A DNA stretch of 3,977 bases from a virus (taxonomy: Duplodnaviria > Heunggongvirae > Uroviricota > Caudoviricetes). The DNA is taken from IMG/VR virus record IMGVR_UViG_2706794671_000011; one strand, 5' to 3'. Below are positions 34 through 3,977 of this stretch, one piece after another (the first letter of the stretch is position 1; the number at the start of each line of letters is the position of its first letter). Under the pieces are notes generated by a model. The model made no database searches. It saw only the letters and a program-made list of their open reading frames with translations, and had not been told where the DNA came from. The position numbers and the translations under genes were made by a program.

Positions 34-1017
34 TCAGATTTTTTGTAAAGAATCTGTCACGCTAAAAGATGTCGAACAAAAATTAACCACAATCATCATC
101 TTTTTTGCATCAACTNNNNNNNNNNNNNNNNNNNNNNNNNNNNNNNNNNNNNNNNNNNNNNNNNNNNNNNNNNNNNNNNNNNNNNNNNNNNNNNNNNNNN
201 NNNNNNNNNNNNNNNNNNNNNNNNNNNNNNNNNNNNNNNNNNNNNNNNNNNNNNNNNNNNNNNNNNNNNNNNNNNNNNNNNNNNNNNNNNNNNNNNNNNN
301 NNNNNNNNNNNNNNNNNNNNNNNNNNNNNNNNNNNNNNNNNNNNNNNNNNNNNNNNNNNNNNNNNNNNNNNNNNNNNNGTCATTACCGTCAAGATAAGCC
401 ACCTCAATTGTGTCCGTTCCCTGTGCTGAAAGCATGTACCATTGCTTATCACTGACTTCATCAAGGCGGGGATCGACAATAATATCCAGTTGTTTGTGGT
501 ACGGGTTATATGAACCACTGTTTGTATCGGCACCGAAAGGCGTGGTTGAGTTAACCATTTGCAACGCTCTGTCTTCCAGAGCCGCAGGAACAAGAAGGAA
601 TTTTGGCACAATATTCAGCACCTCACCGTTTTCATCCCTCTGTGTGCGCATTGCACGGCGTGCAATGCCAAGCCCTGTAGTGCTGACTCCGTTATCAATA
701 TCATTTCCGTGTTTTTTGCTGAACAGCGGTATACCGTCAGAAAGCTTTGTGTTTCCTGTCAGCACCAGATGAACCAGATTACCCACCGTTCTGGCGGCTG
801 CTCGCCCCATTGCCTGTGGGATAACTGTTAACTGATTCAGGTCATCGTTAATAATCGCCTGTCGGGTAATGCTGAAAATATTTCCGTAAGTTGCCAGCGC
901 GATTGGTTCGCCACGGTCACTGGTGGTGATGTATTTATATTCCGCGCCTTCCGGCACTTTGTTTAATGTAGAGAAGCCATTCAGGCCAACACGACGTGCC
1001 TCATGGAAGTTTGACAA
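34..1017 (-). CDS. Putative phage major capsid protein; N-terminal ~213 aa visible (379-1017), middle masked by Ns, C-terminus uncertain
   Basis: Long minus-strand ORF directly downstream of the prohead protease gene, the canonical position of the major capsid gene. Codon usage is protein-like. The frame has no ATG or GTG for the first ~70 codons; the first possible start is TTG at 1015-1017 with AAGG 4 nt upstream. Frame continuity across the 263-nt N block (116-378) cannot be verified, so the stop at 34-36 is provisional. Confidence 0.55.
   Translation of the reverse strand: MSNFHEARRVGLNGFSTLNKVPEGAEYKYITTSDRGEPIALATYGNIFSITRQAIINDDLNQLTVIPQAMGRAAARTVGNLVHLVLTGNTKLSDGIPLFSKKHGNDIDNGVSTTGLGIARRAMRTQRDENGEVLNIVPKFLLVPAALEDRALQMVNSTTPFGADTNSGSYNPYHKQLDIIVDPRLDEVSDKQWYMLSAQGTDTIEVAYLDGNDXXXXXXXXXXXXXXXXXXXXXXXXXXXXXXXXXXXXXXXXXXXXXXXXXXXXXXXXXXXXXXXXXXXXXXXXXXXXXXXXXXXXXXXXVDAKKMMIVVNFCSTSFSVTDSLQKI
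116..378. other. N-masked block (263 nt) inside the capsid ORF
   Basis: Run of n characters; no sequence information available. Confidence 1.
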
Positions 1018-2126
1018 TGAACCTTTTTTCGTCCACTGGCGGAACGTTTCGCCGCTGTGTTCACGGATTTTTCAGCACCACCAGCAAGGATATAAGTAAA
1101 ATCGCTGCTGCTGTGGGTGAATGCCGCGTTTACTATCTGCGAGCGTGTGCTGTAGCTGCCTGTGCTTATGCCGCGATGGGTTAATGATGCCTGTGCCATA
1201 TCGAAAAGGCTCATCATGGCGTAAGGGTTGCCGCGTTCTGCCTGTTCATGTCCCAGACGCGCATTAAGCCCCTGACGCATTGCATCGCCGGTTATGTTGC
1301 CGTTATCCGTGTACGCGTAGTAAAGATTTGCGGGGGTGGTTTTGTTTGTCGGTGTCGATTCTTTACCCATAGTGAGTAAAAGGCGTTCGCGTGCATCCTC
1401 AACGCTACAGCCTGAATCAGCAAGACAACTTATAGCCAGGTCGTTATATCTTCCATTGAACGTGCCAAACAATTCACGTATCCCGTTGAGTCGTTCCTGT
1501 TCTCCGCTGCCAGTTTTCTGGCTGATCATGCTTTTAATATTTTCCGGCATATTCGAAAAATCTCCGATTCGTTTTGATTCAATTCTGGCCATTGCTGTAA
1601 TCGCGGGTATAACCTCATCTGCGAAGCCATTAGCCTTACACTCATTGCCATCCATCCAGGTTTCCGCCTCCATCATGGCGGTGATTTCCTGTTTGCTCCT
1701 GCCCGTTCTTCCGGCGTAGGTTTCCGCCATCGTGTCGCCCAGCTTGTCCATCAGGTCAGCAAAGCGGCGAACGTCGCCCGACACTCCGGCAGTAACACCA
1801 CGGGGGGCATGTATCATCATCATCGCGTTTTCAGGCATAACGATGTGATCGCCACACATGGCAATAAACGAGGCCATAGAAGCCGCCATGCCTTCAATGT
1901 GTACAATTTTCTTTGCCGGATGATTTTTCAGGGCGTTATAGATAGCCAGCCCTTCAAAGATGTCGCCACCAGGTGAATGGATGCGAAGATGGATTTCAGG
2001 CACATTACCGCACGCGTTGATCTCGTCAGTAAGTGCCGATGCTTTTACACCGTACCCGCCGATCTCGTCATAAATGCGTACATGTACAACATCAGCCATA
2101 GCCTTAATGGAAAACCATGTTTTCAT
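981..2126 (-). CDS. ClpP/S14-family prohead (head maturation) serine protease with ~190-aa C-terminal scaffold-like or capsid-N-terminal extension
   Basis: 381-aa ORF with ATG at 2124-2126 and a strong SD (AGGAG, 7-nt spacer). The N-terminal half has the ClpP-like core, including HSPGGDIFEGLAIYNAL and GMAASMASFIAMCGDHIVMPENAMMMIHAPRG, which resembles the ClpP active-site serine region (CMGQAASMGAFLL...VMIHQPLGG). The start overlaps the stop of the upstream small ORF as ATGA (2123-2126). Confidence 0.85.
   Translation of the reverse strand: MKTWFSIKAMADVVHVRIYDEIGGYGVKASALTDEINACGNVPEIHLRIHSPGGDIFEGLAIYNALKNHPAKKIVHIEGMAASMASFIAMCGDHIVMPENAMMMIHAPRGVTAGVSGDVRRFADLMDKLGDTMAETYAGRTGRSKQEITAMMEAETWMDGNECKANGFADEVIPAITAMARIESKRIGDFSNMPENIKSMISQKTGSGEQERLNGIRELFGTFNGRYNDLAISCLADSGCSVEDARERLLLTMGKESTPTNKTTPANLYYAYTDNGNITGDAMRQGLNARLGHEQAERGNPYAMMSLFDMAQASLTHRGISTGSYSTRSQIVNAAFTHSSSDFTYILAGGAEKSVNTAAKRSASGRKKVHCQTSMRHVVLA
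1023..1029 (-). other. A_AAA_AAG slippery heptamer in phase with the protease frame; candidate -1 programmed ribosomal frameshift site or indel-prone A6 homopolymer
   Basis: Minus-strand protease codons are CGA AAA AAG GTT (plus 1023-1031), so the heptamer is in X_XXY_YYZ phase. A -1 slip then reads GGT TCA TTG TCA AAC = G S L S N, which is exactly the capsid ORF frame. Confidence 0.35.
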
Positions 2127-2317
2127 AGCCAGGCTCCTAACGTTGCCCTGTACCAGTATTCAACCGCGCTTCTCGCAATCTGCCCTTTCGTGGGTACTGG
2201 CATTCCAGGGTGATGACTTTTAATGAACTGCTGATAGCGTTCGAGCTTCTCCATAGTTCCGGCGTCTATGTGCACTGTTGCACTTTTATCCGGTTTTCTG
2301 CTGTTGTTCTCTGGCAT
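2123..2317 (-). CDS. Small hypothetical protein (64 aa from ATG at 2315-2317; 75 aa if the upstream ATG at 2348-2350 is used), first gene of the head operon
   Basis: Minus-strand ORF. GGAGG (plus 2325-2329 as CCTCC) sits 7 nt upstream of the internal ATG, whereas the first ATG at 2350 has no SD. The stop overlaps the protease start (ATGA), implying translational coupling. No recognisable family by eye. Confidence 0.5.
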   Translation of the reverse strand: MPENNSRKPDKSATVHIDAGTMEKLERYQQFIKSHHPGMPVPTKGQIARSAVEYWYRATLGAWL

Positions 2318-2348
2318 AAGTCTGCCTCCGTTATGATTAACGGGCATC

Positions 2349-2420
2349 ATTATTGATCGATAAAACTGGTAAATAAATCATTTTCTATCTAAAAATCAGA
2401 TTATGTGTTTTCTGATTTTT
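2349..2420 (-). promoter_or_regulatory. Candidate activator-dependent promoter for the head operon: -10-like AATAAT (minus, plus coords 2349-2354), no convincing -35, with a perfect inverted repeat centred about 60 bp upstream
   Basis: On the minus strand AATAAT matches TATAAT 5/6. The -35 position (TTTATT) is poor. The perfect dyad AAAAATCAGA-N10-TCTGATTTTT (2391-2420) lies where class I / late-gene activators typically bind. Confidence 0.25.
2391..2420. repeat. Perfect 10-bp inverted repeat AAAAATCAGA / TCTGATTTTT with 10-nt spacer
   Basis: Read directly: 2391-2400 aaaaatcaga, 2411-2420 tctgattttt (exact reverse complement). It sits in the intergenic region between the SSB and head operons. 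The stem is AT-rich, so it is more likely a protein-binding operator than a strong terminator. Confidence 0.6.
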
Positions 2421-2438
2421 GTCATACCAGCAAAAGAA

Positions 2439-2467
2439 TTGACTAATTATTGCCAAGCCAGCACAAT
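2439..2467 (+). promoter_or_regulatory. Weak sigma70-like promoter candidate on the plus strand (TTGACT -17 bp- CACAAT)
   Basis: -35 TTGACT (2439-2444) matches 5/6, the spacer is 17 bp, and the -10 CACAAT (2462-2467) matches 4/6 with the conserved A2 and T6 present. It would initiate near 2474, about 40 nt upstream of the terminator hairpin. Confidence 0.25.
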
Positions 2468-2511
2468 TAAGACTCATCATTTCGGTAGTGGCAGTATCCT
2501 TTGTCGCTGAC

Positions 2512-2549
2512 AAAGCGCCTCCGGTGGCACCATCGGGGCGCTTTTTTTT
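2512..2549 (+). terminator. Intrinsic-terminator-like hairpin: AAAGCGCC stem, 17-nt loop, GGCGCTTT stem, followed by a T8 run (plus orientation); A-tract/stem/short U-tract in minus orientation
   Basis: 2512-2519 aaagcgcc pairs with 2537-2544 ggcgcttt, with Ts through 2549. A short 7-bp inverted repeat CTTTGTC-gct-GACAAAG (2499-2515) sits immediately upstream. Confidence 0.5.
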
Positions 2550-2559
2550 GCGCCTGTTT

Positions 2560-2831
2560 NNNNNNNNNNNNNNNNNNNNNNNNNNNNNNNNNNNNNNNNN
2601 NNNNNNNNNNNNNNNNNNNNNNNNNNNNNNNNNNNNNNNNNNNNNNNNNNNNNNNNNNNNNNNNNNNNNNNNNNNNNNNNNNNNNNNNNNNNNNNNNNNN
2701 NNNNNNNNNNNNNNNNNNNNNNNNNNNNNNNNNNNNNNNNNNNNNNNNNNNNNNNNNNNNNNNNNNNNNNNNNNNNNNNNNNNNNNNNNNNNNNNNNNNN
2801 NNNNNNNNNNNNNNNNNNNNNNNNNNNNNNN
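2560..2831. other. N-masked block (272 nt) covering the C-terminal part of the SSB-like gene and adjacent sequence
   Basis: Run of n characters; no sequence information available. Confidence 1.
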
Positions 2832-3150
2832 GTCGCGCCGTTCTGGCACTGATTACACTGTCTGCGATAACCTGCCAGCCCTGCCGCGTTTCTCCGTTCT
2901 GGCCTGTCCACTGGCTTACCTGCATGTTACCCGCCACGCTCACCAGCTCGCCTTTCTGGTGCTTTGCCAGTGCGTCAGCCTGTCTGCCAAACGCCAGGAC
3001 GGATAACCATATCGTCGCCGTTCCGTCATCTGCCTGGCTGCACGGCAGGGGAACCGCCATACTCGCCATCGTCATTTGCGTACCCTTGCTGGTGGTCTTT
3101 AACTGCGGGTCAGCCACCAGCCGCCCGTAAGCCGCTATCTGTGCTGTCAT
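2832..3150 (-). CDS. Single-stranded DNA-binding protein-like (OB-fold) protein, N-terminal ~106 aa visible; C-terminus lies inside the N-masked block
   Basis: ATG at 3148-3150 with GGAG upstream. The N-terminus MTAQIAAYGRLVADPQ...WLSVLAFGRQADALAKHQKGELVSVAGNMQVSQWTGQNGETRQGWQVIADSV aligns by eye with the SSB OB-fold pattern of E. coli SSB (GNLGQDPEVR...[50 protein letters not shown]). The ORF-track extension to 2467 passes through Ns and is not trusted. Confidence 0.65.
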
Positions 3151-3392
3151 GCTGTCTGCTCTCCGGTTTTAACGTTGATGGTTGTCACCTGTTCCGCTTC
3201 GGCAATCTCCCGTTCTGTCAGCGTGGCAAAGTTTGCCGCCGTCGTGGTCATGAATGCGCTTATCAGTTCGGGATGTGCTTTCGCGTATCCTTCCCCGGCG
3301 TTGCGGTCGATGATTTTTATCGCCACCCTCAGCCAGTGTTCTGTCAAATCAAGGGCGTGAGATTGTGGTTTTTTGGCGTGCTTCGTTGTCAC
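3147..3392 (-). CDS. Hypothetical 81-aa protein, GTG start, translationally coupled to the SSB-like gene
   Basis: GTG at 3390-3392 is preceded by GAGGT with a 7-nt spacer. The stop TGA overlaps the SSB ATG (ATGA at 3147-3150). An in-frame stop lies 13 codons upstream of the GTG, so the start is constrained. No family recognised. Confidence 0.5.
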   Translation of the reverse strand: MTTKHAKKPQSHALDLTEHWLRVAIKIIDRNAGEGYAKAHPELISAFMTTTAANFATLTEREIAEAEQVTTINVKTGEQTA

Positions 3393-3592
3393 AGGCTTTA
3401 CCTCACAGCAATAAAATAAAATTTTTGCATTTTAACCCTTCACCTGTTCACCTTTTGCAATTTTCCCTTTTTATTCATGATGTTAATGGGTTAACAGTTT
3501 CACAAAAACTATTCACCAACTGTTCACCACTGTTCACCCTTAAAGCTCAATAAAGAATCAAAAAGGTGAACAGTGAATAGTTTGGTGAACAG

Positions 3593-3619
3593 TTCATAAA
3601 TAACTGTTCACCCTATAAT
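3593..3619 (+). promoter_or_regulatory. Sigma70-like promoter candidate embedded in the origin (TTCATA -15 bp- TATAAT) with an iteron in the spacer
   Basis: Perfect -10 TATAAT at 3614-3619. Weak -35 TTCATA at 3593-3598 with a short 15-bp spacer. Iteron TGTTCACC (3605-3612) lies between them, so initiator binding would occlude it. It points antisense to the 93-aa ORF. Confidence 0.3.
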
Positions 3620-3643
3620 ATACTGATATAAAAGACATTTATT
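3613..3643. other. AT-rich core flanked by iterons; candidate DNA unwinding element of the origin
   Basis: cctataatatactgatataaaagacatttattg is markedly AT-rich and bracketed by the forward iteron at 3605 and the reverse iterons at 3648/3658. Confidence 0.35.
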
Positions 3644-3695
3644 GCAGGGTGAACAGTGGTGAACAGTTATTCCATAAGTTTAATTTTTTCCATCG

Positions 3696-3977
3696 TCATT
3701 TGTGACCTATTGCACATGATGGCATCCAGTCTTCTGAATCCTCTGTCAGGGTCACATTTGAACGCAAACCGTGCTTCGTTTTCCGTTTCATATACTCCCT
3801 GCCATATTCCGCCATTGCCCCCGGCATATCTTTACCGAAGCGCGTCAGTGTTACAGGTTTACCGAATCCGTGTGCCCTCATATATGCCAGATAGGCGTGA
3901 TAAAGATACCTGCGCGGACTGAACGGAATAATTTCGGCATTACCCACTAACAGACCATCACACATTACCGACGACAT
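3696..3977 (-). CDS. Hypothetical 93-aa protein immediately upstream (in transcription order) of the iteron array; possibly an iteron-binding replication protein or the C-terminal part of a larger one
   Basis: Minus-strand ORF with ATG exactly at the window edge (3975-3977) and stop TGA at 3696-3698, 30 bp from the first iteron. Whether the ORF extends beyond the window cannot be determined. No family recognised. Confidence 0.45.
   Translation of the reverse strand: MSSVMCDGLLVGNAEIIPFSPRRYLYHAYLAYMRAHGFGKPVTLTRFGKDMPGAMAEYGREYMKRKTKHGLRSNVTLTEDSEDWMPSCAIGHK

Follow-up and report, generated by a model that had tools for sequence, protein, structure and literature searches.

An array of P4-type iterons beside a helicase gene as the probable replication origin of a Gram-negative phage-inducible chromosomal island

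In the window, the whole 3,977-nucleotide stretch of DNA analysed here (virus record IMGVR_UViG_2706794671_000011), all genes lie on the minus strand and run from an initiator gene at the right edge through an 81-aa ORF, a single-stranded DNA-binding protein (SSB) gene and a 75-aa ORF to a ClpP-protease/major-capsid gene. The initiator gene passes the right edge, so that its last 93 codons are visible. Runs of N at 116-378 and 2560-2831 hide part of the capsid gene as well as the 3′ end of the SSB gene, and the ORFs listed across these two runs are artefacts. The 81-aa ORF stands next to the origin in all islands inspected, among them the phage-inducible chromosomal islands (PICIs) EcCICFT073 and EcCIIHE3034, an O157 element and the RepA-type EcCI11128, and is a conserved origin-adjacent gene irrespective of the type of initiator. 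The SSB gene is likewise syntenic among related PICIs, and its product is probably a replication accessory. Between the initiator gene and the 81-aa ORF lies an intergenic region of 303 bp (3393-3695) with a GC content of 32.7%, as against 48-53% in the flanking genes. It holds a dense array of one octamer, TGTTCACC, in both orientations (Table 1). The first iteron ends at 3665, 30 bp from the initiator stop codon at 3696, which places the array immediately 3′ of that gene.

Table 1. Features of the array and the adjoining genes (positions in the window; a dot marks a feature without strand)
Feature	Position	Strand	Detail
Initiator C-terminus: SF3 helicase with C-terminal winged-helix origin-binding domain, last 93 codons	3696..3977	-	By homology
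Initiator-proximal iteron pair (3658-3665, 3648-3655)	3648..3665	-	Two exact TGTTCACC, 10-bp phasing
AT-rich spacer, 35 bp, candidate DNA-unwinding element	3613..3647	.	GC 0.229
Single inverted iteron	3605..3612	+	Exact copy; counterpart of P4 ori 9353+
Iteron triplet	3565..3591	-	3584-3591 exact; 3572-3579 degenerate, TATTCACT; 3565-3572 exact
Second AT-rich spacer, 26 bp	3539..3564	.	GC 0.231
Distal iteron triplet	3510..3538	+	3531-3538 and 3521-3528 exact; 3510-3517 TATTCACC
Degenerate iteron, point-mutated copy	3489..3496	-	TGTTAACC, 1 mismatch
Terminal iteron pair, 8-bp spacing	3437..3452	+	3445-3452 exact; 3437-3444 CCTTCACC
81-aa ORF, conserved neighbour directly after the origin	3147..3392	-	phrog_1231, 4.7e-49
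SSB gene, 3′ part N-masked	2832..3150	-	Pfam SSB, 1.9e-16; phrog_44, 2.8e-33

Eight exact copies of the octamer fall between 3445 and 3665, and a scan of the rest of the window for exact TGTTCACC returned none. When the window was shuffled 200 times with dinucleotides preserved, the mean count, taken as the expectation, was 0.11; the shuffled sequences held one copy at most and never reached eight, which rules out chance or low-complexity repeats as the source of the array. Seven of the eight exact copies share an extended 10-mer form, ACTGTTCACC. Four further sites within the array are degenerate, with one mismatch at 3489 and 3510 and two at 3572 and 3437, and at all four positions related arrays carry an iteron, either exact or with a single mismatch. 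The site at 3489 is an exact TGTTCACC in two close relatives (L002 and L003). Neighbouring tandem copies are spaced by 10 bp (3521/3531 and 3648/3658) or 11 bp (3510/3521), and the region at 3510-3538 pairs with 3646-3681 as an imperfect inverted repeat of 36 nt with 83% complementarity. An earlier note on this DNA had counted eight exact and three degenerate copies; the first figure stands, and the second becomes four. The two orientations, the 10-bp tandem phasing and the AT-rich stretches between clusters that it described are all present, the two spacers having a GC content of 23%.

The C-terminal part of the initiator (ORF 3696-3977) matches the Pfam family Pox_D5 (2.6e-11) as well as PDB entry 1KA8 (E 1.5e-22), the winged-helix DNA-binding domain of the phage P4 α protein (PMC2777425), and is 51% identical to α residues 690-771. 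Over 89 aa, the ORF is 100% identical to the C terminus of a protein of 605 aa in E. coli 90-3040 that is annotated as “DNA primase family protein”. P4 α and the PICI initiators share a module of D5_N, SF3 helicase (DUF5906) and winged-helix (Pox_D5) domains, and the Rep protein of EcCICFT073 (L006, located through Table S1 of PMC6092414) is 41% identical to α residues 324-756. The Zn-ribbon and Toprim primase domains of α (Zn_Ribbon_Prim and Toprim_3 matches) were, in contrast, not found in the full-length initiators of L002, L003 and EcCICFT073, which match D5_N, DUF5906 and Pox_D5 only; for the window, which lacks the N terminus, this result is taken from relatives with 100% identity to it across the visible 89 aa. 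The N-terminal 150 aa of these relatives matched no Pfam family at E ≤ 0.001 and no NCBIfam model. The genes in question (L002 14301-16118, L003 14848-16653 and L006 5242-6996) are annotated as “DNA primase family protein” and encode no recognisable primase domain. Against TIGR01613, the model for the C-terminal domain of phage/plasmid primases of the P4 family, the L002 protein scores 97.5 bits (E 6e-28) relative to a curated cut-off of 108.7, a value that P4 α reaches exactly. AlphaFold2, run on the single sequence of the 93-aa fragment, gave a model with a pLDDT of 39.9, which was discarded.

The octamer is that of the P4 origin. The P4 record (GenBank X51522) labels TGTTCACC “ori type 1 repeat” in ori as well as in crr, which bears out the earlier note's identification of it as the P4 type I iteron. 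The record places six copies in ori and five in each 120-bp crr unit, sequences that we confirmed by scan, and a BLAST search with the array matched the annotated P4 origin. In P4 ori, six sites carrying the identical octamer are ordered, oriented and spaced around a 35-bp AT-rich spacer as they are in the window: measured from the lone inverted copy, they lie at -43/-33/-22/0/+43/+53 in P4 and at -40/-33/-21/0/+43/+53 in the window. Strand relative to the initiator gene is shared as well, and the two sequences align with a mean column identity of 79%. These matching offsets and the alignment indicate orthology between 3565-3665 and the P4 ori core, the 35-bp spacer included. The pair at 3648/3658 corresponds to the P4 ori pair 9396/9406 and recurs at the same offset in 51 related loci, and the triplet at 3565-3591 corresponds to the P4 triplet 9331/9320/9310. 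The 35-bp spacer itself is common to 35 arrays of the same iteron class (class A, below), P4 ori among them, at 69-89% AT, and its spacing is kept across iteron classes.

Beyond this core, the two systems differ in layout. P4 ori is without the second, opposed group of sites that the window has at 3510-3538, 3489 and 3437-3452. Iterons stand at the distal-triplet offsets in the closest relatives too, several with only one or two of the three, and relatives also have a pair at the offset of the terminal pair (for example, 245< and 253< in L013). P4 ori lies ~2.1 kb upstream of α, between ORF88 and sid and upstream of the left operon; it is P4 crr, 46 bp 3′ of α, that occupies the position of the window array. 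P4 crr further resembles the array in its octamer and in a ++ -- + sub-pattern over 84 bp, yet it consists of two 120-bp direct repeats of mostly degenerate sites and works with a distant ori, whereas the window array has neither the 120-bp duplication nor a second locus. Replication of P4 requires two separated iteron regions, ori and crr. In place of this split arrangement, the window has one longer array of ~12 sites at a crr-like position. A search for a second iteron cluster in the full related islands L002, L003 and L087 found none, giving one array per island; a lone exact TGTTCACC lies inside the helicase gene, ~590 bp upstream of the array (L002 14867, L003 15414 and L087 12937). Judging from these relatives and from EcCICFT073, a single array would be sufficient for replication.

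The array can also be set beside the published origins of PICIs. Fillol-Salom et al. (2018) placed the PICI ori immediately 3′ of pri-rep, with two iteron sets flanking an AT-rich region (PMC6092414). In that work, a plasmid carrying EcCICFT073 rep and ori replicated, deletion of rep abolished colony formation and deletion of ori left significantly fewer colonies (PMC6092414). EcCICFT073 agrees with the window in the position of the array 3′ of pri-rep, in the iteron sets around an AT-rich region and in synteny (DUF4222, helicase, ori, small ORF, SSB and capsid genes), and the two arrays are collinear site for site. They differ in the octamer: the EcCICFT073 sites are all TGTCTACC or TATCTACC as opposed to TGTTCACC, exact copies of which are absent from the whole EcCICFT073 island, and the C-terminal domain of its initiator is only 35% identical to that of the window. 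EcCIIHE3034 has the same iteron class as EcCICFT073. The layout is similar in EcCI11128, which has a RepA-family helicase and AAGTGGGGAG iterons. Its origin (L088 6386-6586) comprises two opposed AAGTGGGGAG sets around an AT-rich centre, 3′ of the helicase gene, and thereby represents a different PICI origin type with the same layout and an unrelated initiator. The Rep-ori modules of SaPIs and other Gram-positive PICIs, as well as iteron plasmids, resemble the array in organisation only. A cos or pac site was considered for the array and rejected, the EcCICFT073 cos sites being described apart from ori (PMC6092414).

Gram-negative PICIs carry int, an AlpA-type regulator, pri-rep and capsid-morphogenesis or terS genes in ~8-12 kb with one direction of transcription (PMC6092414), and such a gene set defines them (PMC6092414, PMC10085698). 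P4-like satellites are recognised by a psu-delta-sid operon, epsilon and α (PMC10085698). We find the PICI gene content in L002, L003 and L087, which are 97-99% identical to the window over its origin part. The copies inspected are islands of ~10 kb with the order integrase, HTH regulator, Icd-like gene, small ORFs, DUF4222, helicase, array, small ORF, (SSB), capsid-type gene and (TerS). The genes that they carry include SSB, capsid or protease-capsid genes, with TerS in addition in L002 and L003. No sid, psu or delta gene is annotated in any of the three, and a P4-like element, which has these genes, was rejected on this ground. Going by the gene content of its relatives, the host element is a Gram-negative PICI and not a P4-like satellite. 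L003 occupies the lysR(abgR)-smrA site, the same as the published EcCIEC2733.1. The islands in L087 (6837-19389, E. coli O157:H7 3-5-1) and L002 (9313-19814, strain 90-3040) sit within a lambdoid-prophage terminase gene, with terminase fragments on both flanks. A more distant relative of the array (72% identity by BLAST) lies directly after a “DNA primase” gene in vB_KppS-Ant, an element of 16.5 kb that encodes a capsid and was deposited as an induced prophage.

The earlier note had expected a P4-α-type origin, an α-like primase-helicase encoded nearby and a satellite-type element. An α-like initiator does adjoin the array, on the strength of the 1KA8 match and the 51% identity, although the primase domain is missing from its closest full-length relatives; the relatives are indeed ~10-kb satellite islands, with the PICI gene set instead of a P4-like one. 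The origin type itself agrees with P4 in octamer, spacing and cognate domain and departs from it in having a single array in place of the bipartite ori plus crr.

To place the array among its relatives, we queried a set of genomes, one for each species, with an alignment of four initiators and obtained 80 Enterobacterales loci from Escherichia, Klebsiella, Raoultella, Kluyvera, Citrobacter, Enterobacter, Pectobacterium, Serratia, Yersinia, Rahnella, Erwinia, Pantoea, Xenorhabdus and Photorhabdus, a sample dominated by Xenorhabdus relatives. Iterons were called as the most repeated 8-mers up to 420 bp 3′ of the helicase stop. Nearly all 80 loci have an iteron array within ~300 bp 3′ of that stop, five being weak or unclassified, and the octamers fall into four classes: TGTTCACC/TATTCACC (class A, 62 loci, P4 among them), TGTCTACC/TATCTACC (class B, 7 loci), TCTCCACC (class C, 5 loci) and TGTCCGCC/TGTCCACC (class D, 4 loci), where the counts include the comparison sequences P4, EcCICFT073 and L003. 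The layout, > > 43 bp < 21 bp > > > ~44 bp < < > < <, hardly differs between classes A and C, and classes B and D broadly resemble it. That it is kept from class to class indicates that all copies in one array switch together.

The iteron classes co-vary with the C-terminal domain of the initiator, which supports recognition of the iterons by that protein. Among pairs of loci with helicases more than 80% identical, the C-terminal domains are 87-90% identical when the iterons are of the same class and 63-64% identical when they are not. In Kluyvera ascorbata (L008, class A) and K. georgiana (L015, class B), for instance, the core is 98.5% identical and the C-terminal domain 63.6%, with different iterons; for E. 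ruysiae (L010, class B) and E. coli (L003, class A), the corresponding values are 93.2% and 64.6%. Class-specific indels and substitutions are concentrated in the segment aligned to α NYEKRHTKQGIQTN, where identity is 0.39 between classes and 0.56 within them at matched helicase divergence, compared with 0.58 and 0.60 in the remainder of the domain. Judged by the topology usual in winged-helix domains, the class-specific segment is probably the β-hairpin wing. EcCICFT073 and L086 have class-B iterons with a C-terminal domain lineage unlike that of the other class-B loci, so the code that relates domain to iteron is not one-to-one.

Taken together, the repeats and their statistical significance, the homology of the adjacent domain to α, the collinearity with the P4 and EcCICFT073 origins and the co-variation of iteron and domain make it very likely, on sequence grounds, that a Gram-negative PICI has its vegetative replication origin at 3437-3665, with ~12 putative initiator-binding sites of the form (A)CTGTTCACC. 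We found neither DnaA boxes nor GATC sites within 3393-3695, which fits an initiator-specific origin independent of the host initiator; the IHF-like matches in the same region each contain one mismatch and are uninformative. The mechanism that we infer, which covers binding by the initiator, the place of first melting, the succession of steps and the supply of primers, would begin with induction of the island and synthesis of the initiator, whose C-terminal domains would occupy the iterons. These sites form oppositely oriented groups on either side of the two AT-rich spacers, of which the 35-bp spacer at 3613-3647 is the likely site of first melting and loading. Helicase rings would then load and unwind the DNA, and priming would probably fall to the host primase (DnaG) or to the uncharacterised N-terminal domain, given that the closest full-length relatives have no counterpart of the Toprim primase of α.

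An array at this position might instead act at a distance. P4 crr binds the initiator and loops to ori, and the array, immediately 3′ of the initiator gene, stands where crr does; its sites at 3521+, 3531+, 3565-, 3584- and 3605+ (relative positions 0, 10, 44, 63 and 84) resemble those of a crr unit (0, 9, 52, 70 and 84). If the array were such a cis enhancer, however, a separate origin would be expected elsewhere in the island, and L002, L003 and L087 offer only the lone copy inside the helicase gene. Moreover, the initiator-proximal half is collinear with P4 ori down to the 35-bp AT-rich spacer, and the EcCICFT073 construct still replicated with only rep and the putative ori site. The missing second cluster and the ori-type core within the array make an enhancer role of this kind very unlikely. 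A reading of the repeats as mainly operators, through which a regulator or initiator-repressor would control the 81-aa ORF, SSB and capsid genes with no origin function, draws on the fact that they fill the entire 303-bp region between co-directional genes and end ~50 bp upstream of the next start codon. Autoregulation is common among the iteron-binding initiators of plasmids, and a regulatory side-effect of initiator binding may exist beside the origin role. As their main function, though, control of transcription is highly improbable: a scan for promoters and terminators yielded no terminator and, on the gene (minus) strand, no sigma-70-like promoter, octamer and spacing alike match the origin annotated in the P4 record, and the repeats co-vary with the helicase C-terminal domain and not with any regulator.

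The long imperfect palindrome raises the further question of whether nucleic acid structure is what counts, as an RNA hairpin (a terminator or processing site) or a DNA cruciform in which the octamers would be incidental. Besides the 36-nt inverted repeat and its 83% complementarity, the region has a predicted RNA fold energy of -72.8 kcal/mol (z = -9.3) and sub-threshold matches to hairpin families in Rfam. The latter, however, are plant and animal miRNA families scoring 23-33 bits against gathering scores of 70-249, and both they and the strong fold are an automatic outcome of inverted iterons. A structural element would not require the same octamer in each arm, 10-bp tandem phasing or a concerted switch of octamer between classes, and no T-tract terminator was found, so that we consider this explanation extremely improbable and retain that of a replication origin.

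Binding of P4 type I iterons by α and the location of PICI origins 3′ of pri-rep, one of them tested, are already published. The array described here is, by its sequence, a further PICI origin that combines the P4 specificity class with a PICI scaffold. We found no statement in the literature that PICIs share the P4 octamer, the iterons in Figure 2a of PMC6092414 being illegible, and full-text matches to the bare octamer were unrelated primer lists only. The array would mark where replication starts in a PICI family that is frequent in E. coli and uses the recognition code of P4 α. Of 5,426 complete E. coli genomes, 649 contain its origin region (window 3380-3977), with a median of one and up to six copies per genome, so that several matching islands can coexist; an initiator induced from one of them might act on all those with a matching origin region. 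Such arrays could be used to annotate satellite origins and to predict which initiators replicate which islands, and the natural domain and iteron swaps provide a set for studying how winged-helix initiators read DNA.

Two more speculative proposals follow, which we advance as a pair and regard as doubtful when taken jointly. The octamer and spacing that a large subset of enterobacterial PICIs shares with P4, an unrelated satellite, and the 51%-identical domain make cross-firing possible, such that P4 α might activate PICI origins in trans, and P4 ori and crr might respond to the PICI helicase; the C-terminal domain with its iteron array, in turn, could behave as a swappable cassette, in four classes on one conserved scaffold. 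If true, the former would mean cross-activation or interference between two satellite families, and through the latter, swapping of domain and array may diversify islands into replication-specificity groups.

Elsewhere in the window, the segment at 2393-2549, between the masked 3′ end of the SSB gene and the 75-aa ORF, contains several hairpins: one with the arms AAAATCAGA...TCTGATTTT, one formed by the palindrome CTTTGTCGCTGACAAAG, and GCGCC...GGGGCGC, after which the plus strand has a T8 run. The segment resembles a bidirectional terminator; an Rfam scan gave no match in this segment. Window positions 379-2559 find their best match among complete E. coli genomes at only 89% identity. At 981-1120 (junction near 1062), we observe a 13-bp deletion relative to the “ClpP-like prohead protease/major capsid protein fusion” gene of O157:H7, and the resulting frameshift breaks the gene into the overlapping ORFs 981-2126 and ..-1017. 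The protease/capsid gene is probably a pseudogene, or else the deletion is an assembly error. Together with the point-mutated iteron at 3489, the frameshift may indicate that the copy of the island in the window is decaying.
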